Shown here: in pieces, positions 9,090-62,457 of the stretch
How positions within the stretch are numbered: position 1 is the first letter of the stretch
Layout: every line of letters starts with the position of its first letter
Position numbers and translations under genes: made by a program
Notes under the pieces: generated by a model
Told to the model about the DNA's origin: nothing
Database searches by the model: none
The model's input: the letters and a program-made list of their open reading frames with translations, nothing else
Source: Staphylococcus phage Fi4S2
DNA length: 64,000 nt
Sequence record: PV037056.1
Reading direction: 5' to 3' (one strand)

Positions 9090-10241
9090 ATGGTAAAAGC
9101 TATTGGAGATTGGATAGATTTAAACAATGAAATAATGCAAGTTGATGATAAAGGTAAAAACAAATTGTATAAAGATAAGGAAGCTTTACAATCTTATCAG
9201 AATTATGTTAAAGAGAATACATTGGAATTTGACAATGAAGTAGAGAGAGTTCGGTACCTAACTAAAGAAGGCTTATATGATTCTTTCTTCGATTCTGTAC
9301 CCGATACTATCATTAAAGAATTAACAGAGTTTGCTTACAGCTTCAATTTTGAGTTCCAAAGTTTTATGGCTTGTCAAAAGTTTTATGAGGGTTATGTTGT
9401 ATTAAAACATAATAAAGATAAGTCTTTTAATTTTGTAGAAAACTATGAACAACACAATGTGCGTGTAGCCTTATATATGTTCCAAGATGACTATGCAAAA
9501 GCTAGAGCCTTTGTAGAAGAGCTTATGACTCAAAGAGTACAACCAGCAACACCTACTTATACTAATGCAGGTAAAGGAAATAGAGGAGAATTAAGTTCTT
9601 GTTACTTATTTAATGTAGATGATACTTTAGATTCTATGAACTTTGTTGAAAACAACACTAAGAATGCTAGTAGAGTAGGTGGAGGAGTTGCTATAGACTT
9701 CACTCGTATTAGACCTGCTGGAGCTACAGTAATGGGTAATCCTGGAGCTAGTAAAGGCGTAGTTCCTTATGCCAAAGAGATTGAACAAGGATTAAGTCGT
9801 ATAGACCAAGGTGGTAACAGACCAGGAGCTGGAGCAGGGTATTTAAACATCTTCCATATGGACATCTTTAACTTTTTAGATGCCAAGAAGATAAATGCTT
9901 CAGAATCTTTACGTTTATCTACATTGTCAATTGGTGTTATTATACCTGATAAATTTATGGAACTTGTTAAATCAGGTGAAGACTTCTACACATTTGACAC
10001 TTACGACATCTTCTTAGAGTATGGTAAGTACATGGATGAGGTTGACTTTAATACAGAATATGATAAACTAGTAGCTAATGAGAATATTAGAAAGGAAAAG
10101 CACTCAGCAGAAGACTTAGTAACTAACATTGCTAAAACACAGCTAGAGTCAGGCTATCCTTATGTATTTTTCATTGACACAGCTAATGAGAATCACCCTC
10201 TAAAACAGTTAGGTAGAGTTAAAATGAGTAACTTGTGTAAA
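9090..10241 (+). pseudogene. nrdE: nrdE (class Ib RNR alpha) 5' portion only, interrupted at the catalytic SNLC motif
   Basis: The N-terminal and central RNR-alpha sequence, including SSCYLF, is present. The ORF ends MSNLCKQMHL with a stop inside the inserted element. No downstream nrdE exon is present in this window. Confidence 0.7.
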
Positions 10242-10367
10242 CAAATGCACCTTTAAGGAGCAATCCTTATCGAAAAATCCATCTAAAACGGGGAAGCCTA
10301 AGTCGTATAGATAAGGTAATCCGTTGCTAAATATATAAATTGTAGTCACTCTAAGGAGAGTGATAGT

Positions 10368-10949
10368 ATGAAAAACAAACCTGTAGGGTCAGTATACGTT
10401 ACTACATGCCATATTAATGGTAAAAAATATATAGGTAAGTTTCTTTATAACAGAATAAATGATTGGAAAAAATATCTAGGTTCAGGAAGGTACCTGAAAG
10501 AAGACATAAAAAAATATGGTAGAGAAAACTTCAGTAAAAAGATAATAAAAGATTATTACAGCAAGAAAGAACTAGAACAGGCTGAAGAAGAGTTAATTCT
10601 ACAAACTGGTGCAGTATATGACACTAACTACTACAATGTAAAGTTGTCCTCAATAGGAGGGGATGTTTTTACAACTAATCCACGCAAAGAAGAATTACGT
10701 GCTATGAGAAAACAGCAAATGAGTGGAAAAGGTAATCACCAGTACGGTAAGACTAAAACTAAAGCTATGGTAGATTCTGTAAAGAAAGCTAACTCTAGAG
10801 CTATAGAGGTGGATGGGGTATTTTACCCTAGTACATCAGAGGCTTCAAGAACACTAGGAGTTGGACATACTACAATAGGCTACAGGTTAGACTCTGAAAA
10901 CTATCCTACATATAAAAGATTGACACCTAGAAAGTTTGAAAAGAAATGA
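10368..10949 (+). CDS. GIY-YIG homing endonuclease
   Basis: N-terminal GSVYVTTCHINGKKYIGK is a GIY-YIG motif. There are repeated NUMOD-like basic segments and a C-terminal HTH. RBS AAGGAGAG. The ORF is inserted in a hairpin loop (flanks ATATAAATTGTAG / CTACAATTTATAT). Confidence 0.85.
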   Translation: MKNKPVGSVYVTTCHINGKKYIGKFLYNRINDWKKYLGSGRYLKEDIKKYGRENFSKKIIKDYYSKKELEQAEEELILQTGAVYDTNYYNVKLSSIGGDVFTTNPRKEELRAMRKQQMSGKGNHQYGKTKTKAMVDSVKKANSRAIEVDGVFYPSTSEASRTLGVGHTTIGYRLDSENYPTYKRLTPRKFEKK

Positions 10950-11010
10950 CTACAATTTATATTAAATGCCCAACGACTATCTGTAACCTATCTACAATGT
11001 AGAGGGATAA

Positions 11011-11160
11011 GGTTAGAGCCAAGTGGTCAAGGTATTGAGTAATAATCATATAAAACCTTGTTAAATCGAAACGGTGGAACTCCCATGGGAGTTCCACCGT
11101 TTCGATTTAACAAGGTTTTATATGATTATTACTCAATACCTTGACCACTTGGCTCTAACC
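11011..11160. repeat. Perfect 150-bp palindrome (75-bp arms) centred on CCCATGGG
   Basis: Read directly: 11011-11085 is the exact reverse complement of 11086-11160. The first mismatch occurs at 11007/11164. Confidence 0.9.
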
Positions 11161-11345
11161 TTCTCCCTCTTACTTAGTAAGATAGGTTACGGATAGTCGT
11201 TAGGCATTTACAATACTTAGTATTGATTTAGCACGGGATTACCTCTATCCTTTTAGGACTTAGGTTCTCTTATCAGCTGTTTAAAGCTATGCCCGTTTTA
11301 GATGGATTTTTCGATAAGGATTGCTCCTTAAAGCTACATTTTAGT

Positions 11346-11744
11346 TTATAGAAACGCTATTTGTTCTGTTACGATTTCCCCTACTCGGAATTCTTCATTA
11401 TAATTTTGTGCACTACAGCCGTGATAAGATATAATAACATCTTTAGTTAAATTATCCACGACTACAAGGTCGATTACGTCTTTTTTAAGAATTTCTTCAC
11501 CTAGTGAAGCAAAGCCTAACTTAGCAAAGTTCTCTTTTTTCATACGTAAACGTTCTACTGTTATTGTACCCTCATAACGTAAGTATACGTGTTCTTGAGG
11601 CATAATAGAACCAATTTCATAAACACCTGTAGTACCATATTCACGTTGTCCTGACGCTGATTGTGCACGACCAACGATTTTTCCACCTACCATAATGTAG
11701 ACGGTATTACCACTGTGTACAGACTGTTTCTTTTCTGATGCCAT
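11346..11744 (-). CDS. tail tube protein
   Basis: 132-aa ORF immediately downstream of the sheath gene on the same strand; size and position are typical of a myovirus tube protein. Confidence 0.65.
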   Translation of the reverse strand: MASEKKQSVHSGNTVYIMVGGKIVGRAQSASGQREYGTTGVYEIGSIMPQEHVYLRYEGTITVERLRMKKENFAKLGFASLGEEILKKDVIDLVVVDNLTKDVIISYHGCSAQNYNEEFRVGEIVTEQIAFL

Positions 11745-23330: not shown

Positions 23331-24629
23331 CTACTGTCCTAATTGAGGGTCTGTGGGTTCTAATGTTTGTTCTTCTTGAGCATTTTCTGTCTCATTATCA
23401 GGTGTCTCTTCTCCAGTTTCTATAGTCTCTTCAGGATTCTCAGAGTTACCTACATCTTCTTCCATATTAGTTTCTTCTTCTTCAGGAGGAGAAGGATTAG
23501 TTACTTCTTCTTCTGTATTATCTCGCCCTTCTTCAGGAGGTGTAGGGTTGACTGTCTCTTCTCCATTACTGTTTTCATTGTTGTTTTCTGCTGGAGGTAC
23601 TTCAGGTTCAGGAGCCTCTTCTCCATTACCACCATCTGTATCGACATTATCAGAAGGCTCTTCAGGATTAGTAACTTCCCCGTTACCACCATCTGTATTA
23701 CCTCCTCCAATACCTCCAGGCGTATTAGGGTCAGGATTAGGATTAATATTAACGTCAGGGTCTTCAGGTACAGTAGGGTCTGTAGGCTCAGGTTCTACAG
23801 GTTGTGTAGGCTCTACAGGTGTAATGTTTCCATCTCCACCATTATTACTATCCCCGTTGTTAGTACCTGTATTACCTCCTCCTATTCCCCCAGGAGTGTT
23901 AGGGTCAGGGTTAGGATTTACATTAACGTCAGGGTCTTCAGGGTTATCAGTAGGTGGAGAAGGCTGTGTTACTCCATTGTCAACACCCTCTGCATTGTTG
24001 TCATCTCCTCCTCCTATTCCTCCAGGAGTGTTAGGGTCAGGGTTAGGATTAACATTAACGTCAGGGTCTATTATACTTCCATATTCTTGACCAATAACGG
24101 GCGGAGAGGAGCTATTTATATTTGGTGAAGTATTGTAAGGGTTGTTAACTAATGAGTCATCCTGAGATGGTACAGGTGCTTGTGCGCTTCTAGCTCTATC
24201 TAAAGACTCTTTATCACCTGCTTTGTAACCCTCACTTTCATTAGCTCTTACTTCTTTATTAGAGCTATCCTTCATTGCAGTATCGTCACTAATGACTTCT
24301 TTAATAGATTTATCTTTGTTAGCTTCTTTATCTATTGTTTCTTTCATTTTTTCTGCGTCTTCTATTTTTTCTTGTTTACTCTTCTTGTTGTAATCTTTAT
24401 AGTCAGATTCCTTTTTTATTTTTATTATTTGCTTTTGAGCTTCATCTAGTTTACTCTTACTATCTTCTGAACGCTCTTTGTAAAGCTCCACCTTATCTTC
24501 TAGATTCTCTGCATCAGAAGATAACTTTCTATTATTTACATACAAGAAAATAAGACCTAAAATGACTACGATACCTATAGCAATTACTAATACATCACTT
24601 ATAAGCTTATTTTGTTTTCCACTCTTCAC
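23331..24629 (-). CDS. membrane-anchored protein with coiled-coil, Pro/Gly tandem repeats and acidic tail
   Basis: 432 aa. It has an N-terminal TM segment (LISDVLVIAIGIVVILGLIFLYV), three copies of DPDVNVNPNPDPNTPGGIGGG and a D/E-rich C-terminus. Confidence 0.6.
   Translation of the reverse strand: MKSGKQNKLISDVLVIAIGIVVILGLIFLYVNNRKLSSDAENLEDKVELYKERSEDSKSKLDEAQKQIIKIKKESDYKDYNKKSKQEKIEDAEKMKETIDKEANKDKSIKEVISDDTAMKDSSNKEVRANESEGYKAGDKESLDRARSAQAPVPSQDDSLVNNPYNTSPNINSSSPPVIGQEYGSIIDPDVNVNPNPDPNTPGGIGGGDDNNAEGVDNGVTQPSPPTDNPEDPDVNVNPNPDPNTPGGIGGGNTGTNNGDSNNGGDGNITPVEPTQPVEPEPTDPTVPEDPDVNINPNPDPNTPGGIGGGNTDGGNGEVTNPEEPSDNVDTDGGNGEEAPEPEVPPAENNNENSNGEETVNPTPPEEGRDNTEEEVTNPSPPEEEETNMEEDVGNSENPEETIETGEETPDNETENAQEEQTLEPTDPQLGQ
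23720..24070 (-). repeat. three tandem ~120-nt coding repeats within the 432-aa gene
   Basis: Near-identical DNA blocks encode the PEDPDVNVNPNPDPNTPGGIGGG repeats. Confidence 0.7.
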
Positions 24630-27634: not shown

Positions 27635-27865
27635 AATATACCGCCTTTAATTTTGTTTATATGTATTTGAAGAGGAGGTAAAAGGAGCCACCCTAATACC
27701 TCTTTGATTTAACAGCTTAGAGTATAGTCAAAATAAGTAGTAGATTACCTTGACTATAAATACATTATAACACAGAGTAGTTATATTTTTTTATCTTTTA
27801 CATATAGTTATTTAATCTTGAATGTGGGAGTTCTTACCTTTATTTATGTTGTATAAAACTTATTA

Positions 27866-27989
27866 TGACACATTTAGGAATTTAACGATGTTTATTAGTA
27901 TATATACTTTAATAACCTTTATTAGTACTTTAGTAATTATAATAATAATAGTTATATATAAAGATTGATAAATGTTCTAAATGTGTCAC
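27866..27989. repeat. MITE-like 124-bp element, copy 1, with 12-bp terminal inverted repeats
   Basis: Begins TGACACATTTAGG and ends CTAAATGTGTCAC; AT-rich interior. Confidence 0.7.
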
Positions 27990-28012
27990 TTTATGTTGTA
28001 TACTATCTATTA

Positions 28013-28135
28013 TGACGTATTTAGGAATTTATTAACCTTTATTAGTAATTATAGTTATAATACTAGTAATTATAATTAAAGATATATAAAGTATATAGTT
28101 ATATATAAAGATTAATAAAATCTTAAATGTGTCAC
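28013..28135. repeat. MITE-like element, copy 2 (tandem)
   Basis: Begins TGACGTATTTAGG and ends TTAAATGTGTCAC; the interior is homologous to copy 1. Confidence 0.7.
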
Positions 28136-28155
28136 TTTCTGTATTACACAATATA

Positions 28156-28190
28156 ATAAAAAAAGAGAACTAAACTAATAGCTCTCTTCA
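28156..28190 (-). terminator. intrinsic terminator
   Basis: A8-GAGAACTAAACTAATAGCTCTCTT. Same design as 24688-24725. Confidence 0.5.
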
Positions 28191-35747: not shown

Positions 35748-36378
35748 TTATCAGACATACGAGAGATACCGTATGTTGCCTGGCAGAGGCTTTATATCTG
35801 ACTGTTGGTCTCGACTGGTGACTCCTTCCAGTCCAGTATCTAATTCACACAGAGCCTTAGCGCTCATCTAAATTTCCGTGGTTCTGACTGGTGCGCACTG
35901 GTCTTTACTGAAAACTTAGGGTTTCCCTGTACTAGCGTTAGTATCGGTTAAGCGTTAGATAAGGTGAACCGTACCTACTTTCCAAATAGGGATAACTCAA
36001 AATTAGATAGCAACTTGAGAGTGAAATAAGTCGGACAGCTTTATATTCAGAAGAAGTGTCAGAGAATATAAAGTTATGGCTTGAGATACCGAGCCTTGAT
36101 TATTAGGTATCCGACACTTGGCGTGTAACCTAAGTTTATGGTTAGATGGGTTACAACATAAGGAAGCTGATTTTCTCTGTATAGCTTAGAGGAACTCCAT
36201 AAGACAGCCAAACCACTGTATATTCAGTTACTATGACAAAGCTATATGAGGTAAACTCTTATATAGCTCCCTGTTATAGTGCATACACGCAGTGACGAGC
36301 GTTTCAACATCAAGGATACTCATACAATTGTCGTAAAATAATATTAACCGTAATCTAAGTACGGGAGCCTTGATGGGA

Positions 36379-36412
36379 CACCTATTAATTAAAATAGGTG
36401 TTTTTTTTTTGT
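36379..36412 (+). terminator. intrinsic terminator
   Basis: CACCTATTAATTAAAATAGGTG followed by T11. Confidence 0.75.
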
Positions 36413-53215: not shown

Positions 53216-53497
53216 TTAAGCTTGTGTTGCTTTGTCGTGTCTCTCTTGTGCTTCCTGGTGAGTGTCAGGGAAATCAAACGTCCTAACTGATTTAGCACCG
53301 TCAAAGCGTGTCACAGTTGTTTTTGTGTGGTAGTAACCAAAGATAGTATATTTCTTTTGAGTGCGTCTCTCACCTTCCCAGCGCTCCTCAACAAATGATG
53401 TTTTGAATTGGTCATGTGAAATGAATGACTCTCTAGTGTCTCCGTTAATGTCTGTGTACGTTACCTTGATTGATTGTAATTGATTGAAATTTTCCAT
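53216..53497 (-). CDS. hypothetical protein
   Basis: 93 aa. Confidence 0.5.
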   Translation of the reverse strand: MENFNQLQSIKVTYTDINGDTRESFISHDQFKTSFVEERWEGERRTQKKYTIFGYYHTKTTVTRFDGAKSVRTFDFPDTHQEAQERHDKATQA

Positions 53498-53546
53498 TTT
53501 TAATATCTCCTTTTGGGCTGTTGCCCTCTGTTATTTGGTATACCTA

Positions 53547-53576
53547 ATGATAACACATTAGGTTTAATTCTGTAAA
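53547..53576 (-). promoter_or_regulatory. sigma-A-like promoter (minus strand)
   Basis: TTTACA - 18 nt - TATCAT. Confidence 0.4.
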
Positions 53577-53883
53577 GCTAAATGACTCAATTTGTTAACT
53601 TTTTTTTTAAAACCAGTATGGCCAAAATAAATACGTTAGCGCTGAAGCGGTTCCCAGCATTGACCAGCCGATTATTTTAAGATTCTTTTTCACTGTGTGC
53701 CCTCCTTTCCAGTTGCTGAAGTAAGTTATTTTTTCTTGCTTGGTTTCTTGCTTGCTTTCTTTTTTGGGTATCCTGCAGGTGGCATAAATTGGTTTGCCAT
53801 TCTCTGCATTGCTTTTGTTTCTTCTCTCATCTCTGCACCTCCTAATTTCAATTTTAAGGGCTCTAGGTGAGCCCCTGCACCTC

Positions 53884-54102
53884 TTACATGTGTTTCATAG
53901 CGTGAGCCATGATTTGCTCTTGTGTGAGCTTCTCAAAGCCTTGATAAGTCATTCTTGCGACTGTTGCGTCTGTTTGGTTCAAGTAGTCGTAAACTTCTTT
54001 GACTGGGACAAGTCTGTCACGCTTTGCTAAGTACTTAGCAACCTTTCTTTCTACGTGCTGGGCAGTGCTTTCACCTTTCTCGAAGTTCATTGTTGGTTTC
54101 AT
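53884..54102 (-). CDS. hypothetical protein
   Basis: 72 aa. Confidence 0.5.
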   Translation of the reverse strand: MKPTMNFEKGESTAQHVERKVAKYLAKRDRLVPVKEVYDYLNQTDATVARMTYQGFEKLTQEQIMAHAMKHM

Positions 54103-54598
54103 GTTCTCATATCCTTTCGAGCTCCTGGGCTCTTGTTTTTTGTGTTGCTGTTCTTGACACTCTTAATACTAAAGCATTAGCAACCCAATTGCAAGCATTA
54201 ATTTACATTATTTCATCAAAAAGCCCACAAACCCTTGTGGCTCTAAGGAAAAAAGTTTTTAAATAAATTACTGCAATCTAGTTTCTACCATATAAAGGGA
54301 ATAAAAAGGATTTACCCCCAGCAAGAAGAAAGCACTATTTCAAATTGCAGTTAGTGAGTGCAGGGGGCAAACGGTAAACAAAAAACATACTAAACAGTGG
54401 CAAAGTCGATCGACTTTTAAAATTTAAAAATGACATCAAAGTGATCACTTGCACCCACCTTCAAAATTTGCCCTTATATGGAAAGAAAAGTTTTTTAAAA
54501 GAATTTGAGCATATGGGTTGTGTTATGGTTCGATTTGTTATATATTAGAACCAAGCCAAACAAGGCAACCAAAAAAAAACCTAAAGGAGTTTTTCATT

Positions 54599-54946
54599 AT
54601 GACAAACCAAACACTAAACAACATTAACCAAATGCCAGCATGGGACTTACAAGATATTTTAAACTACGCAAAGCAACAAATGATTGAGAATGACATAATC
54701 TTTCAAGATGTAACTTTAAACAATTACCAGCTACAAGAAGAGGACGGCACGGAATACTTCGAGCTTTACACTAGCACCGTAGCGATTGACTCCGAGACAA
54801 CTCTCGAAGAGTTCAGAAGCCAGGTTATCGAAGCTGAGGAATTAGCAGAGACTTTCAAAGGAGCCCTGGCACTGCTACAACGTTCAATCAATGAGCACAT
54901 GAAAGAAAAATATTTTGAATATGATTACATTACAAATTTACTGTAA
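54599..54946 (+). CDS. hypothetical protein
   Basis: AAAGGAG RBS precedes the ATG at 54599. The upstream part of the longer 54518 ORF lacks an RBS. Confidence 0.5.
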   Translation: MTNQTLNNINQMPAWDLQDILNYAKQQMIENDIIFQDVTLNNYQLQEEDGTEYFELYTSTVAIDSETTLEEFRSQVIEAEELAETFKGALALLQRSINEHMKEKYFEYDYITNLL

Positions 54947-54992
54947 GAGCAGGAGCCCCTGGGGCTTCTCTCTCTTTTTTCTTTTTTTTTTA
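54947..54992 (+). terminator. intrinsic terminator
   Basis: GAGCAGGAGCCCCTGGGGCTTCTC followed by long T runs. Confidence 0.7.
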
Positions 54993-55015
54993 TTTAATTT
55001 TTTTAGGGCAACTTT

Positions 55016-56056
55016 GTGGGCTACTACTTAGAAGAATTGTGGACTACTACTTAGAAGGATTGCTAATATCCATTCTGTTGTCTATAACTACTAAGCAAAC
55101 CCCTCTCATAGATAACCAATATAGATTAGGTATTATTTATCTATTAGAAACTACTATCATATAGAGTTAGCGTAGTGTTGCTTACTCTATAGAGGTTGAT
55201 AACAAACTGTCGGCTACTACTATAGTAAAACACAAAATGACCGCTTTCCTGAATACATTATCAGACTAGAAGCGGTTATCACATACTAACTATTTAATTA
55301 TACTCATTACAACGCTATATAAATAGCTATAGCGACTAAACACTGTGGATAGCTACTATAGTAAACCCGTTACTGTTATAACTATAATCCATAACTTATA
55401 GCTTACCTGTAACTACTCTATCAGTATACCTTATCTATATAGCGCTACAGATGAAGTGTGGATAGCTACTATAGTTAATCACAGTTTTATATAGACAATG
55501 AATCCTATATACTATTGCTATTCTATAACTGAACAGTAGGTACACGCTCTAGAAGCTCTCATATACTATCGGTAACTACTTAGAATATAACCGCTTCTCT
55601 CTACTGATTGTGGACTACTACTGTATCTAAATAGCAATTGAATAGAGTTAGCTTCAGCTGTCGGCTACTACTATAGTAATTCATGAAGCGGTTGAAAAAG
55701 TGTTTTGAAAAATTGATTTGAAATTTTGGAAACTAAAAAGGTAGGGTGGCTACCAGGGGTACCTTCTACTCTCTATTATATATCTGAGTGATACTTACTT
55801 AGCCCTAGTCGATAGTTATTAGATTGTTATAGAGTTAAAGGAGGAACTAAATAACAGTTGAGTATTTAAGGAGTTTAGTTATGAAATTATAGAGTTAGTT
55901 TTTTAGGATAGTTGCTAGGGCTTTCTATTCAGTACCACTCAATTAGATAACAGTTAAGTTAGGAGGTCTTAACTGTTAAATACATTATAACATAGCTTGA
56001 GGATTTCTTTTTATCTTTTGCAATTTCATGGACTACTACTGTAGATATATTGACTA
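55016..56056. repeat. array of at least 12 degenerate ~22-nt direct repeats in ORF-free DNA
   Basis: Repeat copies start at 55016, 55039, 55085, 55148, 55209, 55345, 55409, 55457, 55571, 55610, 55660 and 56030. Approximate consensus is GTGGACTACTACTATAGTAA, with irregular spacers. Confidence 0.75.
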
Positions 56057-56065
56057 CAATACATA

Positions 56066-56186
56066 ATGACGTATTTAGGATTTTAACGATGTTTATATAT
56101 AACTATAATTATAGTAGTATTATAGTTCTTTAATAGTTATATAACTATAGTTACTAATAAAGGTTAATAAATTCTTAAATGTGTCA
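56066..56186. repeat. MITE-like element, copy 3
   Basis: TGACGTATTTAGG ... TTAAATGTGTCAT; homologous to the 27866-28135 pair, with internal segments in inverted arrangement. Confidence 0.7.
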
Positions 56187-56277
56187 TAATACTTTGTGTA
56201 CAACATAAAAATAATAGTTGACTCTGTTCAGGATAGATGATATACTTAGTTTACAGATATAAGAGAGGAGAATAATT

Positions 56278-56562
56278 ATGGATACAAAATACAAAGCTTT
56301 AGATTTTTCAGAGGTAGATTTATTAAATGCTTTCCACTTCTATGTAATATCAAAAGTAGATAGCATTACAGATGTTACTCAAACAGATTCAGGAGAGGTT
56401 TACTATAAAGGAGAGGTTATCTTGAAGATGGATAAGAACCTTGTACAAATCTTTACTACCCCTATCATGGATAAGATGACTGAGGAAGATTTTAGTTTTA
56501 TTGCTAGCTTCAGAAACGCATTACAAATTATTATCAGTCAGAAAAAAAGAATTACAGAATAA
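56278..56562 (+). CDS. hypothetical protein
   Basis: 94 aa; RBS GAGAGGAG. Confidence 0.5.
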   Translation: MDTKYKALDFSEVDLLNAFHFYVISKVDSITDVTQTDSGEVYYKGEVILKMDKNLVQIFTTPIMDKMTEEDFSFIASFRNALQIIISQKKRITE

Positions 56563-56625
56563 TGCTTGACATTCAATTAGAACTATAGTACACTATTATT
56601 ACAAACAAATTAGGAGGAACAAATT

Positions 56626-56850
56626 ATGTTACCATTTTTTACAAGAGTTAAGAAAGAATTAGAAGCAAAGGGTTACACAGTTACAGACAATACAGAGGAA
56701 GGTTTCTTTGTAGCAGAGAACAGCAGTAAGGTCTACACTATTGATTACAAGAATGAGGTCTTGGAAGAGTTAGATGACAAAGGACAGCTACACATTCAAG
56801 ACATTAATAGTCTAGACATCACAGAAGCGGAAATCAAAGTAGCTTCATAA
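56626..56850 (+). CDS. hypothetical protein
   Basis: 74 aa; RBS AGGAGG. Confidence 0.5.
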   Translation: MLPFFTRVKKELEAKGYTVTDNTEEGFFVAENSSKVYTIDYKNEVLEELDDKGQLHIQDINSLDITEAEIKVAS

Positions 56851-56983
56851 CTAAAGAGGAACTTAGCTCTCTAGAACAATAACCGCTTCATGATAAATTG
56901 TTCCTAATCTATGATTAAGTTATAGAGGGTCAAGAGAGCTAGGCTTCTGTGGAAGCTAGAATTGAAATTAGGAGGTTAAAACT

Positions 56984-57271
56984 ATGGCACCAATCATTAA
57001 TGATGCAGGTTATCCAAGAGAGGAACAGGAAACGGTCTGCGTATATGACGCTCTGTTAGGACAGTGGGTACTCTCTTCTAGTGTAAGGAGACATATTACA
57101 AAGCTGATGAAGCAGTACCCTGAAGCGGAAGTAAAAGAACAGTACAGTAATGGAACACCTGTGTATATAGAAGTAGTATTGAATGAGGATTTAGTATCTT
57201 TCCGTAAGCCCGTATCTAAGGAAAGGAAAGAAGAAATGTCTAAACTAGCTAAGGAGCGTTTTGGTAAATAA
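56984..57271 (+). CDS. hypothetical protein
   Basis: 95 aa; RBS AGGAGG. Confidence 0.5.
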   Translation: MAPIINDAGYPREEQETVCVYDALLGQWVLSSSVRRHITKLMKQYPEAEVKEQYSNGTPVYIEVVLNEDLVSFRKPVSKERKEEMSKLAKERFGK

Positions 57272-57645
57272 TGACAACAATTAATAACCCGTTTGCTAAA
57301 GCTTTACTTAAACAAGTGGAAGCAACATATAACAAGACAGACATTCTAGCCAATAACTCAACACTTATCCCTATCCCTAAAGAAGTCTTTGACTCCAATC
57401 AAAAGGCTAAGCAGTTTATTAAACTGATGGGTAAGATGCATAAGGATGAGAGCTTACCTATTGAGGTAAAGCTAGAGCCAACTAAGACACAAGTAAATGG
57501 TTTGACTTATACAACAATAGATGTTATCATTAGTTATGATACAACTAAGTTAGACATAGATGACTTCAAGAAGAAGTTAAGTTTGATTAATACAGAGGAG
57601 GAGCCTCAGAATGGAACTAGTAATCAAGACATCAGTAAAGGATAA
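57271..57645 (+). CDS. hypothetical protein
   Basis: 124 aa; stop/start overlap with the upstream gene. Confidence 0.45.
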   Translation: MTTINNPFAKALLKQVEATYNKTDILANNSTLIPIPKEVFDSNQKAKQFIKLMGKMHKDESLPIEVKLEPTKTQVNGLTYTTIDVIISYDTTKLDIDDFKKKLSLINTEEEPQNGTSNQDISKG

Positions 57646-57835
57646 CAAAGTCATTGTAGTAACTGAAGAAGAGGCAAATGGTGCAGGAAATCTTATTCAG
57701 TTATTTGCTAATATCAATGAGGACATCAAAAATGAGAGAGCAGTTGTTGTAGCTACAGACTATAACAGACACTCTATTGCAAATGGTTACGTCAATCAAG
57801 TATATTTAGTAAGAGATACAGAGGAGGAAAAATAA
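57611..57835 (+). CDS. hypothetical protein
   Basis: 74 aa; RBS GAGGAGG. Confidence 0.45.
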   Translation: MELVIKTSVKDNKVIVVTEEEANGAGNLIQLFANINEDIKNERAVVVATDYNRHSIANGYVNQVYLVRDTEEEK

Positions 57836-58035
57836 TGATGAGAGTATTAGATTACCCATATAAAGTAGCAACAGAGTTTACAGAGGAAATGAAAGAGGAT
57901 AGAGAGGTACTAGGGATTGTACTAAAAGAACTTATTAGCAAATCCTATGGTGATAAGATTACTAGTATTAACACTAGAGTCGTAGATGGTAAGGAAATCA
58001 TTCAAGTTACAGCAGAACAAAAGGAGGAAAAATAA
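57835..58035 (+). CDS. hypothetical protein
   Basis: 66 aa; RBS GAGGAGG. Confidence 0.5.
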   Translation: MMRVLDYPYKVATEFTEEMKEDREVLGIVLKELISKSYGDKITSINTRVVDGKEIIQVTAEQKEEK

Positions 58036-58319
58036 TGAAAGAAGAACTTGTACAAAAACTAAATGATAAAGTAGCACAACTCAAGGAAGAAAGAATGGAG
58101 TATGCTAAGACTCATGCACAGTGTGAAGAAGAACTCCGTAGCTTAAAAAGTGAACTAGAGCAATTACTTCAAGACTATAATGGAGCAGTTACACTATTAA
58201 ATGGTTCTGTGTACAGTGTCGAGAAGATTGATGAGGAGCTTGAAGCTTACAATCAAACTACTGGAAGACCTTTATATAGAAAACCACGCTTAGAGTTATC
58301 AGTTAAAAAAGGTCATTAA
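58035..58319 (+). CDS. hypothetical coiled-coil protein
   Basis: 94 aa; RBS AAGGAGG. Confidence 0.5.
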   Translation: MKEELVQKLNDKVAQLKEERMEYAKTHAQCEEELRSLKSELEQLLQDYNGAVTLLNGSVYSVEKIDEELEAYNQTTGRPLYRKPRLELSVKKGH

Positions 58320-58339
58320 AAAAAAATATCCGCTTCTTG

Positions 58340-58368
58340 TTGACAGCTTGAAGCGGGCATGATATACT
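58340..58368 (+). promoter_or_regulatory. sigma-A-like promoter embedded in a CCGCTTC/GAAGCGG hairpin
   Basis: TTGACA - 17 nt - TATACT. Confidence 0.55.
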
Positions 58369-58397
58369 AAGTATATAATCAATTAGGAGGAGATATT

Positions 58398-58643
58398 ATG
58401 AGTAACGTATTTGCACAAGAACAATTTATTGACCGTTTAGAACAAGAAGGATTAGAAGTAGTTGAGGAAGATGGTTATTACACAGTAGAAGATGTAGAAG
58501 GTCATGTTATTACTATAGAGTTTAAAGATGGCACAGTATTAGTCATGGATAATGAAGTAACAGAGACAGCTTACAACGTTGAACAAATCTACTTAGCGTT
58601 CTATGCAGTGTTAGACGCACTGGATTATGAATTTGATGAATAA
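58398..58643 (+). CDS. hypothetical acidic protein
   Basis: 81 aa; RBS AGGAGG. Confidence 0.5.
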   Translation: MSNVFAQEQFIDRLEQEGLEVVEEDGYYTVEDVEGHVITIEFKDGTVLVMDNEVTETAYNVEQIYLAFYAVLDALDYEFDE

Positions 58644-58648
58644 AGTTC

Positions 58649-58677
58649 TTGACACCACTCAAGGACTTTAGTATAAT
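58649..58677 (+). promoter_or_regulatory. consensus sigma-A promoter
   Basis: TTGACA - 17 nt - TATAAT. Confidence 0.65.
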
Positions 58678-58707
58678 AGTATTATAACCAGTTAGGAGGT
58701 ATTAGTT

Positions 58708-58782
58708 ATGACTAGAGAACAAATGGAAATGGAACAAGCTAGACAAGATTATGTAACTGCAAAAACAATCAGAAACTTTTAA
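58708..58782 (+). CDS. 24-aa mini-ORF (not in track) with strong RBS
   Basis: AGGAGG followed 8 nt later by ATG; MTREQMEMEQARQDYVTAKTIRNF. It lies between two consensus promoters. Confidence 0.25.
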   Translation: MTREQMEMEQARQDYVTAKTIRNF

Positions 58783-58790
58783 TTATAGTT

Positions 58791-58819
58791 CTTGACACTA
58801 CTCAAGAAATATAGTATAC
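58791..58819 (+). promoter_or_regulatory. sigma-A-like promoter
   Basis: TTGACA - 17 nt - TATACT. Confidence 0.6.
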
Positions 58820-58851
58820 TAGTATTACAAACCAATTAGGAGGAGTTAGTT

Positions 58852-59250
58852 ATGAACAAAGAACAAATCATTAAAGATATATTGGAGAGAATGGAAGATA
58901 AGGGAATTTCACTTGAGAACTTATCCTTTGATGGAGACTACAAGATTACTATAAATGATTTAGCTATAGAGTTTACGTATAGTGGAGACCAAGCAACTAT
59001 CTTCTATGATGGAGGCAGTAAACGTGTAGGATTCCTAGAGGAGGTAGCAGGAGAGGTAGTAGCATTACTACCTGTAGAAGAATGGGAAGCGGGTCAGTTA
59101 GTCAGAAAGCTAAATCATACTAGAGTATTAGTTATATCATCGTGGGACTCTGATAGTTTTAACCTACTCGATGATGAGGCATATAAACTAGAGTATCAGT
59201 ACCCATACACTACAGCAGAATTAAAAGAGATGGGATGGGAGAGAGCATAA
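58852..59250 (+). CDS. hypothetical protein
   Basis: 132 aa; RBS AGGAGG. Confidence 0.5.
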   Translation: MNKEQIIKDILERMEDKGISLENLSFDGDYKITINDLAIEFTYSGDQATIFYDGGSKRVGFLEEVAGEVVALLPVEEWEAGQLVRKLNHTRVLVISSWDSDSFNLLDDEAYKLEYQYPYTTAELKEMGWERA

Positions 59251-59669
59251 TGAAATTACTAAAACAGCTTGTACAAGTACTGGATGAGAGAGGTATTCAA
59301 ATAAAGAACTTAAATGTAGACGATGTGATTAATGGAGAGTACGGAATTGAAATCAACAAAGAAATCACTATTGTCCATAGAGAAGGTTTGTATTATGCGC
59401 TATATACAGAAGATGCTAGCTTAGAGGAGACATATTACAGTTCTCTAACAGAAGCACTAGAAGTAGTAGCTGACTATTTAAGTAGAGTAAAGGAAGGCTC
59501 TATCGTAAAATCTTTTCTTGGCGTATTCACATATAAAGTTATCAAACACAACAGTAAAGATTTGTATAACTTACTAAATGTAGATGACAACACCCTATTA
59601 TATACAGAGTGTGAAAGTATGGACTCTATTCAAGACAAGATTAACAGAGGTCAGTTTTATGCAGAATAG
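59235..59669 (+). CDS. hypothetical protein
   Basis: 144 aa. Confidence 0.5.
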   Translation: MGESIMKLLKQLVQVLDERGIQIKNLNVDDVINGEYGIEINKEITIVHREGLYYALYTEDASLEETYYSSLTEALEVVADYLSRVKEGSIVKSFLGVFTYKVIKHNSKDLYNLLNVDDNTLLYTECESMDSIQDKINRGQFYAE

Positions 59670-59847
59670 TAAATGGTACGCACTATGTGAATATAAAGGT
59701 AAAGGGAAGAATAAAAAGCCTTATCAGATACAGGCCTCTACAAGTAAAGAAAAGCTTTTAGATAGAAAGGATAGCTTAGCTTTAGAGTATCCTGATAGAG
59801 AGTATGCAATAAAGTTAACGACAACCTTTGACAAAGAGAGAAAGTGA
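59659..59847 (+). CDS. hypothetical basic protein
   Basis: AGAGG RBS precedes the ATG at 59659 (MQNSKWYAL...). The upstream part of the 59584 ORF overlaps the previous gene. Confidence 0.4.
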   Translation: MQNSKWYALCEYKGKGKNKKPYQIQASTSKEKLLDRKDSLALEYPDREYAIKLTTTFDKERK

Positions 59848-59872
59848 AGCGGGCTTAATCCGCTTCTCTTAC
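59846..59872 (+). terminator. intrinsic terminator-like hairpin
   Basis: GAAGCGG-GCTTAAT-CCGCTTC followed by TCTT. Confidence 0.5.
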
Positions 59873-59976
59873 TTAGAGTATATAAGTAATTGTATATTGT
59901 AAGTAGGAGTGATGACCCTACTAGATTAAATGTTGCATATAGCCTTCTGTTTATACAGAGGGTTTTTTATTTAAAT

Positions 59977-60005
59977 GTTGACATACTATAACCAGTGTGA
60001 TATAC
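59977..60005 (+). promoter_or_regulatory. sigma-A-like promoter
   Basis: TTGACA - 17 nt - TATACT. Confidence 0.6.
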
Positions 60006-60205
60006 TTAATACATAAGTTAATAGGAGGAGGGTAAGTAGTGAGAGACTTATTAAACTTACAAATTGCTTTTTATATCGTAGTATGGTTGTTAATGATGGG
60101 CTTATTCTACACATATTTATTCTTTTATTGCTGACCATTAAATAATTGTTGACATACCCTGAGTAATATGATAAAGTTAACACATAGTAAAGAGGAGGAA
60201 AAGTA

Positions 60206-60421
60206 ATGGATAAGAAAACCACTATTGTATATAAGGAAGAAGAAGATAAGACTTACATTACATCCAATGCCCCCAGGGATATGGTTAAGCTTTTGAACAC
60301 GTATCCTGAAGAGTATGTAGACTCTACAGATGAAGAAGAGTTAGGTGATGGTATTGTTAAAGTTAAAAGTATAGTGTTAACTATACCAGGAAGAGTATAC
60401 AATTTTGTTAAAGTTAAGTAG
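60206..60421 (+). CDS. hypothetical protein
   Basis: 71 aa; RBS GAGGAGG. Confidence 0.5.
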   Translation: MDKKTTIVYKEEEDKTYITSNAPRDMVKLLNTYPEEYVDSTDEEELGDGIVKVKSIVLTIPGRVYNFVKVK

Positions 60422-60442
60422 TTTATATGAGGAGGAAAAGTA

Positions 60443-60628
60443 ATGGAGAATAGCGACATTATCAATAACATACTAATGGAGTTTGACCATATAGACCAAG
60501 ATGAGCTAACTCATAAACAGCAAATGCTTCTAGATAGAGCAGAATCATTATTAGATGACTTATCATGGGAACTGCAAGAAGAGGAAGCGGTTGAGTTTAT
60601 GAAACAGTTTAAAGAGGAGGAAAAGTAA
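60443..60628 (+). CDS. hypothetical acidic protein
   Basis: 61 aa; RBS GAGGAGG. Confidence 0.5.
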   Translation: MENSDIINNILMEFDHIDQDELTHKQQMLLDRAESLLDDLSWELQEEEAVEFMKQFKEEEK

Positions 60629-62412
60629 TGAAACTATATTTAAACAGTAATATCATAAAAGGAACACCTGAAGAGTTAGTAACTTATCAAGAACTATTAA
60701 AGGAAAGAGGCCTAGATACTGAGAAGTCATTATTCAGTTTTGGACATATGCATCAACCAACTGAAGAGGAAGTCCAAGATACTTTCAAAGGCTTCTTTGG
60801 TTCATTGAAGCTAGATAAGTCATCTGTAGGTGCAACGGAAAGCTCTACAGAGGAAGAGGAAGAGGAAGATGATGAAGCGGACGTAGGAGAGTTCTATACA
60901 GTTGACGTAGAGAACAGCGCTCTACCAAGTGGAACCTTGTTAAAGAAAGTAGATAAGGATACGCATAAAGACTCTACAGGTCATGAATACCTATGTGTAG
61001 ATTCTAACGCACTATCGCATATTGATAAAAACTTATATCAACTAGAAGACCGCTTCAACTTTGCTACTCAGGTAGGTATTAGATTAACAGACACTACAGA
61101 CCTAGCACAAGCAACTGAAGGAGAGTATTTCAAAGTAACAAAAGGATACGCAGACTTAAGTGTAGGAGACATTGTTACTATTGTTAGGGATGACAGAGAT
61201 AATATGCCTCAGTGTAAGGATAAATATAGTAACTTCTATTATCTAGAGCTACACCACCTAGAACCTGTAGAAGATGATGAAGATGCGGAAGAAAATGTTG
61301 AAGAAGACTCCATGCACGATAAAGGAGCTTTCTATACAGTAACTGAGGAGGCTAGTGAATCACCATTGCCTGTAGGGGCTATTCTCCAACATCAACAAGG
61401 CAACCTATTCATTGACTCTAGAGGACAACAGTGTATCATCTCTAGACCATCTTTTGTAGATAGAGGTAGTACACATGAGTTTGATGATTCAATTAAACAA
61501 GACCGTTTTGAACTAGCTAAAGAATTAGGTATCCAGCTAACTTCAACTACAGACTTTGCTGTAGAAGCAAGTGATAGAACATTCCAACTTAAAGAAGATG
61601 AAATGTATTTAACTAAAGGAGACTTTGTTAAGATAGTTAGTGATGATAATGACCGCATACCTTTAGTACAAAGTATAGAAGACTCTGATAAAAAAGACTT
61701 TGTGTATATATCAACATTAGAACTGGTAGAAGATAACATAGAATCAATTCTAAGCTCTACAGATGAAGAGGAAAGTCCTTCTAGAGAACTTAAAGTAGGA
61801 GATAGAGTAAAAGTATTAAGAGCTCTAGGAGGAGCTAAAGGAGAAGCTACTGTAACTGCTGTACTAGAAGGTGGTAAGGTAGAGCTAGCAGGTAACAATA
61901 AAGAAGGTAGTTATCTATCTGATTGGAGTAACTATATCTCAAACGTAGAGAAGATAGAGGAAGAACTCTACGACTACTATGAAGTCTTAGACCCTGACTA
62001 CTTTGTTAGTAGTGTAGAGAAAGGAACTATCCTTAAAAGAACATCAAATCCCTACACTCAGTTTGATGATACCTTTATTAAGCTAGATACTTCTACAGGT
62101 ATAACTCAGAGTAGTTTATTAAAGGATAGTATTATTAAACCTGTTAAAGAAAACAAGTATACTAAAGACCGCTTTACCTTTGCTAAACAAGTAGGAGTTA
62201 ACCTTACAACAACTACAGACTTTTCAGTAGAGTGTGAAGGTCATCAGTTTGAAGTTTCAGAAGATAACGATGTAGCTAACTTTACACATGGAGAAGTGCT
62301 CACTATCCTTGAGGACGATGATTCCAATGCTATCTTTTTCCAAAACTCAGATGGTCTTGAACAGTTTGTATTATTAACAGACGTAAGAGAGATTGCTAGA
62401 CCAAGTAAATAA
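60628..62412 (+). CDS. large early-region protein built from three ~150-aa internal repeats
   Basis: 594 aa. Three modules share FYTV...DRF.FA.QVG..LT.TTD...E....F.....D.....G......D.D. Confidence 0.6.
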   Translation: MKLYLNSNIIKGTPEELVTYQELLKERGLDTEKSLFSFGHMHQPTEEEVQDTFKGFFGSLKLDKSSVGATESSTEEEEEEDDEADVGEFYTVDVENSALPSGTLLKKVDKDTHKDSTGHEYLCVDSNALSHIDKNLYQLEDRFNFATQVGIRLTDTTDLAQATEGEYFKVTKGYADLSVGDIVTIVRDDRDNMPQCKDKYSNFYYLELHHLEPVEDDEDAEENVEEDSMHDKGAFYTVTEEASESPLPVGAILQHQQGNLFIDSRGQQCIISRPSFVDRGSTHEFDDSIKQDRFELAKELGIQLTSTTDFAVEASDRTFQLKEDEMYLTKGDFVKIVSDDNDRIPLVQSIEDSDKKDFVYISTLELVEDNIESILSSTDEEESPSRELKVGDRVKVLRALGGAKGEATVTAVLEGGKVELAGNNKEGSYLSDWSNYISNVEKIEEELYDYYEVLDPDYFVSSVEKGTILKRTSNPYTQFDDTFIKLDTSTGITQSSLLKDSIIKPVKENKYTKDRFTFAKQVGVNLTTTTDFSVECEGHQFEVSEDNDVANFTHGEVLTILEDDDSNAIFFQNSDGLEQFVLLTDVREIARPSK

Positions 62413-62422
62413 AATAACACCT

Positions 62423-62457
62423 AACCGCTTCTAATAAAACTGAAGCGGTTCTTTTAT
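62423..62457. terminator. bidirectional intrinsic terminator between convergent genes
   Basis: AACCGCTTC-TAATAAAACT-GAAGCGGTT followed by CTTTTAT. Confidence 0.7.

Follow-up and report, generated by a model that had tools for sequence, protein, structure and literature searches.

An array of a 22-base motif in Staphylococcus phage Fi4S2, probably a dispersed and diverged form of a non-coding repeat locus of Herelleviridae

We analyzed a stretch of 64,000 nucleotides from Staphylococcus phage Fi4S2 (PV037056.1), called the window in the following, with respect to an array of a 22-base motif that occupies a gene-free stretch of 1 kb immediately 5’ of early genes. The array exists and is unique within the window; it consists of eight strong copies and one intermediate copy. 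Comparison with phages of Enterococcus and Listeria suggests that it is probably a local, diverged version of a non-coding repeat locus common to Herelleviridae. With a probability of about three in four we take the copies to be selected binding sites for one sequence-specific protein, homologous to the arrays of these other phages. An origin-type nucleoprotein site as the underlying mechanism is a more tentative proposal, to which we give about one chance in three.

A 24-column position-weight matrix was derived from the eight copies that are in register (55014, 55037, 55207, 55343, 55456, 55608, 55658 and 56026) and scanned over both strands of the window. With the full matrix these copies reached 25–31 bits and the copy at 55566 scored 17.3 bits, compared to a best score of 9.9 bits elsewhere. 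Circularity was removed by scoring each copy with a matrix made from the other seven (leave-one-out), which gave 17.2–28.0 bits for the eight copies and 9.3–11.3 bits for the best sites elsewhere. The consensus proposed in an initial annotation, which had been made from the sequence alone, found 3 sites with up to 3 mismatches, against 0.00 expected from 100 shuffles. The copy positions given there are right to within 2–4 nt. The count of twelve is not borne out: the claimed copies at 55085, 55148 and 55409 score at background level (9.1, -2.1 and 2.9 bits) and share only AACTACT.

All nine copies lie on the plus strand, and eight of them fall within 55014–55680 (Table 1). Start-to-start distances are 23, 170, 136, 113, 110, 42, 50 and 368 nt. 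The left half, TGTGGnCTACTACT, is common to all copies and represents a conserved half-site, the 3’ half is variable and often palindromic. Three types of 3’ half can be distinguished: CTTAGAAG, CTATAGTAA, which holds TACTATAGTA, and CTGTAGAT/CTGTATCT. Copies 1, 2 and 6 hold CTACTTAGAAG/CTACTTAGAAT, while the other six retain only the left half and CTACT. Outside the motif of ~22 nt the inter-repeat segments cannot be aligned with each other. The motif has thus been kept while the spacers are unrelated, which argues for selection on the motif and not for the decay of a tandem duplication; a decayed long tandem unit was rejected, since the spacers do not align. Conserved motif, single orientation and unrelated spacers agree with the iteron-like character proposed initially. 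The repeats are also not CRISPR-like, as had been stated, and a CRISPR array was rejected because of the spacing of 23 to 368 nt and the three repeat sequence types.

The motif is absent from the rest of the window, other early promoters included. Of the two observations named in the initial annotation as speaking against its interpretation, a genome-wide scatter is not the case, as the motif is confined to the locus in the window scan, and neither are ordinary promoter elements, as it lies upstream of no other gene and promoter matches remain at the level of shuffled sequence. A promoter class, whether for host sigma-70 or a phage sigma factor, was rejected on the same grounds, the motif being absent elsewhere in the 64 kb as well as in the 136 kb of the related Staphylococcus phage Golestan-100.

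A short-query search with the tandem pair (copies 1 and 2) led to matches in Enterococcus myophages, at several places per genome and all in unannotated DNA. Phage phiEF7H (Kochikohdavirus, LC596377.1) carries at ~101,633–101,974 a tandem array of 13.8 copies of a 25-bp unit, TTTTGTAGCCTGCTACTTAGAAGAT. This unit, written as TTGTAGCCTGCTACTTAGAAGATT, is identical to copy 1 at 20 of 24 positions, and the window matrix gives the phiEF7H copies 16.3 bits each. Using the phiEF7H array as query we obtained 124 phage records, with 69 from Enterococcus (Kochikohdavirus, Schiekvirus, the latter including phage iF6) and 54 from Listeria (Pecentumvirus). The 25-bp arrays of the Enterococcus Brockvirinae resemble the window array in that they are non-coding, keep one orientation, have a GC-rich stretch on one side and are directly followed by AT-rich DNA that carries strong sigma-70 promoters and by a series of small open reading frames (ORFs). 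They differ in being strictly tandem with a period of 25–27 nt and near-identical units, whereas the window holds one tandem pair and dispersed, diverged copies. The left half of the Enterococcus units forms a palindrome, GTAGC..GCTAC, that is degenerated to GTGGG/GTCGG in the window. Furthermore the Enterococcus arrays are antisense to the downstream genes and the window array is sense. A description of the Enterococcus arrays was not found in the literature searched.

In the Listeria phages cka4 and A511 the copies (CTATAACCTGCTACTTAGRA) are dispersed, degenerate and irregularly spaced, as in the window. Those of A511 are located in an ORF-free gap of ~1 kb between gp171 and gp172 (126,396–127,418); they adjoin tracts of (GGATA)n and of G-rich sequence, and two strong promoters and small genes begin a short distance downstream. 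For CKA15, a P100-like phage, the same region was described as a 1.2-kb transcriptional dead zone and suggested as replication origin, with the downstream genes being the earliest expressed; the repeat motif is not mentioned in that paper (PMC12282133). The Pecentumvirus gap resembles the window in its dispersed degenerate copies, its ORF-free length of ~1 kb, its G-rich tract and its 16%-GC stretch with early promoters and small genes. It is unlike the window in the additional (GGATA)n microsatellite, in copies that are antisense to the genes and in its distance of 7.4 kb upstream of a verified long terminal repeat (LTR). The Listeria copies resemble the window motif only in the GCTACTTAG core, scoring 9.8–13.9 bits with the window matrix.

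The defining feature of the CTACTTAG-type repeat locus of Herelleviridae, GCTACTTAG(A)A preceded by a T/G-rich left half, is present in copies 1, 2 and 6. The window array also shares the location of this locus, as it occupies an ORF-free gap that leads directly into an AT-rich promoter region and a series of small early-type ORFs. Likewise the arrays of A511, iF6 and phiEF7H are followed by a stretch of 16–21% GC; across the arrays the GC content falls from ~36% to ~30% (5–6 points) and the GC skew remains unchanged. With respect to the downstream ORFs the window repeats run sense, opposite to those of A511, iF6 and phiEF7H, and a GC-rich hairpin (55740–55775) lies between the repeat cluster and the promoter. 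The flanking genes are not homologous across subfamilies: a comparison of TreI-like proteins with the gene upstream of the Enterococcus array gave an hhalign probability of 0.6%. Conserved synteny of flanking genes was rejected since the proteins are unrelated, and it is therefore the motif and its position that are conserved.

We compared the position of the arrays with the terminal repeats (Table 1). Neither repeat boundary of A511 or iF6, both with experimentally verified ends, coincides with an array. In A511, iF6 and K/812 the DNA between array and right end contains only small ORFs on the same strand behind strong sigma-70 promoters. Because the A511 and iF6 boundaries lack an array and small early ORFs fill the distance from array to end in all three, the conserved landmark, as judged from these genomes, is the inner edge of the terminal early-gene block and not the repeat boundary.

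The closest approach to a boundary is seen in Kayvirus, where 812 and K have a 35-bp variable tandem repeat holding CTACTACTAAGTACC that ends exactly at the left LTR boundary. This repeat belongs to a phage of the same subfamily, has CTACTACTAAG in common with CTACTACTTAG of the window, is non-coding, directly precedes the terminal early (tre) genes and is variable in copy number and dispensable. However, it is 35 bp long and strictly tandem, it overlaps the boundary 12-mer, and homology to the window unit is not detected by position-weight matrix: only ~10 nt are alike and the Kayvirus unit stays below 9.5 bits. The bracketing 12-mers of Kayvirus, TAAGTACCTGGG / CCCAGGTACTTA, gave 4 matches in the window at up to 2 mismatches compared to 5.0 expected, none of them closer than 19 kb to the array, and a boundary of this kind at the array was rejected. 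We did not find a second copy of the GC-rich element CTACCAGGGGTACCTT, nor a second copy of any long segment within the window. Alignment of the window with the LTR leader of phage K and Stab22 gave no usable homology, and in Stab22 no array is present at the annotated boundary. The initial suggestion that the array might mark a terminal-repeat boundary is not supported as a general rule, given the missing 12-mer and the A511 and iF6 arrays 5–7 kb upstream of the boundary.

Table 1. Repeat copies and neighboring features in the window, and arrays of three phages relative to their terminal repeats
Feature	Position	Strand	Sequence	Remarks
Copy 1	55014	+	TTGTGGGCTACTACTTAGAAGAA	type A (TTGTGGRCTACTACTTAGAAGRA); 22.3 bits leave-one-out
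Copy 2	55037; pair with copy 1 spans 55014–55059	+	TTGTGGACTACTACTTAGAAGGA	tandem, 23-nt period; type A; 18.2 bits
Copy 3	55207–55228	+	CTGTCGGCTACTACTATAGTAA	type B, holds palindrome TACTATAGTA; 28.0 bits
Copy 4	55343–55364	+	CTGTGGATAGCTACTATAGTAA	type B’; 20.9 bits
Copy 5	55456–55477	+	GTGTGGATAGCTACTATAGTTA	type B’; 20.6 bits
Copy 6	55566–55588	+	CTATCGGTAACTACTTAGAATA	diverged type A (CTATCGGTAACTACTTAGAATAT); 17.3 bits, background maximum 9.9
Copy 7	55608–55630	+	TTGTGGACTACTACTGTATCTA	type C (TTGTGGACTACTACTGTATCTAA); 21.2 bits
Copy 8	55658–55679	+	CTGTCGGCTACTACTATAGTAA	type B, same sequence as copy 3; 26.7 bits
Copy 9	56026–56048	+	TCATGGACTACTACTGTAGATA	type C; 17.2 bits; outlier 368 nt 3’ of copy 8, abuts palindromic element
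TreI-like ORF	54599–54946	+		115 aa from ATG; ORF extends back to TTG at 54518; directly upstream of array
Intrinsic terminator (predicted)	54951–54992	+	AGGAGCCCCTGGGGCTTCT	GC hairpin, then T-run; -7.7 kcal/mol, z = -2.6 (DNA fold)
Motif, A-tract and hairpin stretch	55685–55775			GAAGCGGT, A-tracts (TTGAAAAA, three times), then GC-rich hairpin GGTAGGGTGGCTACC/AGGGGTACC
Palindromic ‘MITE-like’ element	56046–56216			AT-rich, 18% GC; inverted ends GACGTATTTAGGATTT / AATTCTTAAATGTGTC
Promoter	56218–56246	+	TTGACT-17-TATACT	sigma-70 type, TG before second hexamer; 10/12 matches, best of the region; drives first small ORF
Small ORFs	56278–58319	+		eight, 66–124 aa, with ribosome-binding sites; 95% identical to Golestan-100
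A511 array	~126.5–127.1 kb			right LTR 134,495–137,619; 7.4 kb upstream of boundary; ~10.5 kb from right end
iF6 array	149,295–149,430 (MT909815.1)			right direct terminal repeat 154,485–156,592 (verified by RAGE); 5.1 kb upstream of boundary; 7.2 kb from right end
K/812 array	at repeat boundary			distance to boundary 0; 8.5 kb from right end

The array is situated in an ORF-free spacer of ~1.3 kb between the TreI-like gene and the promoter of the early block. In agreement with the initial annotation the 1-kb region holds no more than two ORFs of at least 30 aa, 55039–55164 (41 aa, GTG start) and 55435–55545 (minus strand, 36 aa). The terminator noted before the array (54951–54969 plus T-run) was recovered both by terminator scan and by DNA folding and is predicted to close rightward transcription 5’ of the array. 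On the other side, the GC-rich hairpin is terminator-like on the minus strand (55754–55740; terminator scan), although its fold is weak (z = -1.3), and is predicted to stop leftward transcription ahead of the array; copy 9 follows after a further ~250 nt. Matches to promoters within the array (11) are as frequent as in shuffles (11.2). Since inward-facing terminators flank the array and no internal promoter exceeds chance, it appears closed to transcription from both sides. Rfam gave no match in 53300–56400 at E<=1 except for a chance snoRNA match outside the array, and a structured RNA was rejected.

The TreI-like ORF identified 213 staphylococcal phage records by tblastn, including TreI of the Kayvirus phages P4W, 676Z and K, annotated there inside an LTR that was defined by experiment (36% identity, E=5e-13), and matches Stab22 g010c by tblastx. 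Homologs of Stab22 LTR genes are found on both flanks, g010c (TreI), g012 and g021 on the left and the LTR leader and g001 on the right, which places the array within DNA of terminal-repeat and early type. The eight small ORFs, for which no family match above the curated cut-off was obtained, are typical of host-takeover or early genes. An 8-mer, GAAGCGGT, occurs 9 times compared to 0.32 expected and is confined to the early, terminal-repeat-type region 53644–62449. It is often arranged in inverted pairs ACCGCTTC…GAAGCGGT (55241/55269, 55590/55685, 62424/62442) and is also found in early-promoter spacers of K and Stab22, in both phages in the spacer of the first LTR promoter. Two further observations concern this region. 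About 1 kb at 53500–54500, between a g012-like ORF (53216–53497, minus strand) and the TreI-like ORF, has no ORF larger than 78 aa, an unusually high GC content of ~41% and negative GC skew, and is 93% conserved in Golestan-100; it could be a small minus-strand gene (53884–54102, 72 aa) or a non-coding RNA. A 594-aa ORF at 60628–62412 is a homolog of g001 (327 aa), the first of the Stab22 LTR genes, and is expanded by internal repeats ~450–660 nt apart (61046, 61499, 62165).

The palindromic element at 56046–56216, called ‘MITE-like’ (for miniature inverted-repeat transposable element) in the initial annotation, was confirmed. It is related to elements at 27843–27972 and 27990–28160, all sharing the core GACRYATTTAGRAWTT, which has 5 sites in the window compared to 0.06 expected. 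These elements form the two spots of lowest GC content in the window, 15% (150-nt stretch at 28019) and 18%. The 18%-GC stretch at 56072–56221 is the second most AT-rich 150-nt stretch of the 64 kb; it abuts copy 9, lies ~390 nt from the main repeat cluster and also carries the early promoter. A putative origin of phage K was placed between gp190 and gp191, where two direct repeats, AAAAAGTACGTATTTAGAAAATAAGGAG, coincide with the lowest GC content of the genome and an untranscribed region (PMC11598898, PMC9241854). The element core ACGTATTTAGGA matches these two repeats (…GTACGTATTTAGAAAATAAGG…), and the core ACGTATTTAGRA with its AT-rich tail is present in the window elements at 56046–56216 and 27843–28160. 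Unlike the array, the repeats of the putative K origin do not contain the 22-nt motif, stand alone and are far from the LTR. By this resemblance, an element of the type of the K ‘origin’ touches the array in Fi4S2 and in Golestan-100. The pair of elements at ~28 kb sits where genes switch from minus to plus strand.

The closest relative, Staphylococcus phage vB_SsapH-Golestan-100 (Herelleviridae, Twortvirinae), is 93–98% identical to the window over most of its length and was the sole near relative in the phage collection searched. Many window ORFs also match Kayvirus and other Twort-like phages. Based on this identity and these matches we assign the window to the genome of a Twort-like staphylococcal myophage (Twortvirinae, Herelleviridae). 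No further independent relatives were detected in IMG/VR, metagenome contigs or genome contigs by DNA pattern, neighboring protein or exact-protein look-up; the 12 IMG/VR hits are single chance matches. At the locus, homology to Golestan-100 runs to the tandem pair and resumes inside copy 8 with 95% identity. What remains of the array in Golestan-100 is the tandem pair in degenerate form (12.5 and 17.1 bits) and copy 9 (25.3 bits; 133980, minus strand); no other copies were found in its 136 kb. Its contig ends at a T-run just left of the array.

In the Golestan-100 record the segment carrying TreI is inverted relative to the window. Both segment junctions (LC647030.1 135020–135045 and 136433|1) are poly-T|poly-A palindromes, one of them being the circular closure of the record, and the inversion probably reflects an error in assembling the public sequence. 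Inverting the segment back recreates exactly the junction seen in the window. Given this match and the palindromic junctions, the order TreI-like gene, terminator, array and small ORFs is probably real in both phages. The locus appears permissive to insertions, as an HNH homing endonuclease gene is present there in Golestan-100. Free-standing HNH genes encoding 187 aa each were found in Golestan-100 (LC647030.1 134373–134936) inside the array and in iF6 (MT909815.1 148078–148641) ~650 bp from the array; the two proteins, from different subfamilies, are 27% identical over the HNH domain.

On a larger scale the order of the window assembly is unreliable, with signs of mis-joins. Gene order shows at least 5 breakpoints between the window and Golestan-100, and a mis-join or inversion at repeated intron sequences is probable at 9090–11744. 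Here nrdE, the gene of the large subunit of ribonucleotide reductase (9090–10256), ends directly past the SNLC active-site motif and is followed by an intron-like insert with a GIY-YIG endonuclease ORF (10368–10949); exon 2 is missing, and what comes next is the tail tube gene, which runs on the opposite strand. Positions 11001–11170 form a perfect 170-bp palindrome. Inverted repeats of 50–53 nt connect 10243 with 11292 and 11226 with 30707, and inverted repeats are present at other breakpoints too. Elsewhere in the window, Rfam identified a RAGATH-18 RNA at 2714–2804 (65.8 bits), within a 1.9-kb insertion relative to Golestan-100 (944–2823), and a DUF3800-I RNA at 36274–36412 (45.5 bits) just 5’ of a terminator where the terminase-side block ends, both above the gathering score. 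A 110-nt unit is present in three tandem-like copies, 65–81% identical, at 23659–24074 in the minus-strand structural and lysis region, and also in Golestan-100 (11019–11299).

How might such an array work? In the reading that we rank as most likely among the mechanisms, an origin-type site, the nine or more sites in the same orientation would be bound by one protein through the conserved half-site, and a phage initiator-like protein would coat the iterons. Melting would take place in the adjoining A-tracts and in the palindromic element of 18% GC, and the predicted lack of transcription in the spacer would leave the nucleoprotein complex undisturbed. We infer both the binding of a protein and the use of the region as origin. 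Iteron origins of plasmids and lambdoid phages have several direct repeats of 17–22 bp in one orientation beside AT-rich DNA. The window array likewise exceeds three direct repeats of ~17–22 bp in one orientation, with nine copies on the plus strand. We rank the origin-type site first because the array is built like iterons, is predicted to be insulated from transcription and adjoins an AT-rich element related to the putative K origin, and because an origin has been suggested independently in print for the Listeria region.

A number of observations weigh against an origin. Unlike plasmid and lambdoid iteron origins, the array has no adjacent or overlapping initiator gene: neighboring ORFs gave no DNA-binding, Rep or other domain above threshold in Pfam and PHROG. 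Clustered DnaA boxes are missing as well, with 22 matches in the window compared to 20.5 expected. Although two one-mismatch matches lie in the array (CTATCCACA in two copies; in copy 4 the 5’ part is an 8/9 match on the opposite strand), there is no enrichment and a DnaA-box cluster was rejected. Spacing of the copies is irregular and shows no helical phasing. No GC-skew switch occurs across the homologous arrays of A511 and KEN04, where skew is dominated by transcription. The K-origin-like palindromic element is present three times in the window and therefore does not represent a unique origin marker, and the ‘origins’ of phage K and CKA15 are themselves predictions. The locus is also hypervariable, with 2 to more than 20 copies of the Kayvirus 812 repeat and varying copy number in Enterococcus phages. 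In Golestan-100 a 564-bp HNH homing endonuclease gene replaces window positions 55062–55672, and since this is a viable isolate with few copies, high copy number is dispensable. Sequence alone does not permit a choice between origin, partition, packaging, transcription-factor sites and LTR boundary, all of which had been named initially; what stands of that interpretation is an iteron-like phage array near terminal-repeat-type genes, while the boundary idea is not supported as a general rule.

The most interesting rival to the origin-type site is a DNA-entry border similar to the injection stop signal (iss) of phage T5, which we regard as rather unlikely. Array, G/C-rich tract and AT-rich palindrome would then form a conserved border in Herelleviridae, a functional analogue of the T5 signal at the inner edge of the first-entering early block, and would pause or stop translocation until early proteins are made, either via a bound virion or host protein or via DNA structure. 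If true, right-end-first ejection would be halted once the 7–11-kb host-takeover block is inside, with the repeats as docking sites for a DNA-holding protein. Consistent with this, in three subfamilies whose ends are verified the arrays are found 7–11 kb from the right end, where they mark the inner edge of a terminal block of small genes under sigma-70 promoters. Phage 812 was reported to eject its right end first, and read pile-ups suggest pausing, which the authors propose to be coded by GC/AT content (PMC12886913). Although the surrounding DNA is AT-rich, the arrays have G/C-rich tracts beside them (55740–55775 in the window, GGTGGGGTGGTGGGGG in A511 and the GC stretches of phiEF7H and iF6), and a dispensable element of variable copy number would suit a modulatory signal. 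The T5 iss too is a large untranslated region rich in direct and inverted repeats and palindromes; it is linked to a long terminal repeat and borders the early genes of first-step transfer on their inner side (bioRxiv 10.1101/866236). T5 is however an unrelated phage, and its eight ordered DnaA boxes compare with only two near-consensus 8/9 matches, not enriched, in the window. Moreover, two-step injection is not known for any Herelleviridae, the assembly that would place the window array relative to a genome end is unreliable at large scale, and with respect to the downstream genes the window repeats have the reverse of the orientation seen in A511, iF6 and phiEF7H.

Unlikely, too, is a role as operator sites or transcriptional insulator, in which a regulator would shut off or buffer the early promoters or a roadblock would prevent read-through from middle and late transcription. 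The location 0.2–1.2 kb upstream of the strongest promoter of the region and between inward-facing terminators would fit, as would the GC step from ~36% to 30% across the arrays and the silence of the homologous Listeria region between late/virion and immediate-early genes (PMC12282133). The second motif GAAGCGGT, enriched only in the early region (9 compared to 0.32) and shared with the early-promoter spacers of K and Stab22, points in the same direction. The sites are however too distant from the 56218 promoter and do not overlap its -35 and -10 elements, an operator with nine to fourteen copies would be unusual, the adjacent genes include no regulator, and other early promoters of the window lack the motif. 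Quite improbable appears a terminal-repeat boundary or packaging signal, at which a terminase or small-terminase-like protein would assemble, cut concatemers and make the LTR. In its favor, the Kayvirus repeat ends at the left LTR boundary, where packaging starts; in phiAGATE tandem repeats flank the LTR (PMC3900605), terminal-repeat-type genes lie on both sides of the window array, and the Golestan-100 contig ends just beside it. But the same Kayvirus unit scores below 9.5 bits with the window matrix, its 12-mer is represented by weak matches at chance level, the arrays of A511 and iF6 are 7.4 and 5.1 kb away from the boundaries and the Stab22 boundary has no array. An essential packaging site would also be hard to square with Golestan-100, in which most copies have been lost. 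We consider it very doubtful that the array has no function of its own and is a hypervariable tract, prone to slippage and recombination, in a permissive gap that attracts homing endonuclease genes. The highly variable copy number, the HNH genes in place of the array in Golestan-100 and ~650 bp from the iF6 array and the (GGATA)n microsatellite beside the Listeria arrays could be explained in this way. Such a tract is difficult to reconcile with a motif conserved over three subfamilies with unrelated flanking genes, kept within the window between dissimilar spacers and in strict orientation (9/9), and with a conserved position relative to the early block.

In summary, the window array is real, is probably functional as a cis element and probably represents a new, dispersed and diverged form of the Herelleviridae repeat locus. 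Repeat tracts in the terminal region of Herelleviridae have been noted piecemeal: a variable-number tandem repeat beside the terminal region in Kayvirus (PMC6445280), flanking repeats in phiAGATE (PMC3900605) and the dead zone in CKA15 (PMC12282133). The literature searched contained no account of a motif family common to Twortvirinae, Brockvirinae and Jasinkavirinae, nor of the position that it keeps in them. Herelleviridae comprise phage K, A511/P100 and phiEF24C-like phages, on which phage therapy and biocontrol of Staphylococcus, Listeria and Enterococcus mainly rely. As the hypervariable locus breaks assemblies, it is relevant to genome finishing and to the quality control of therapeutic phages. 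A motif that recurs in three subfamilies at the inner edge of the early block represents a concrete target for studying the replication origin, LTR formation and the staging of DNA entry in these phages.

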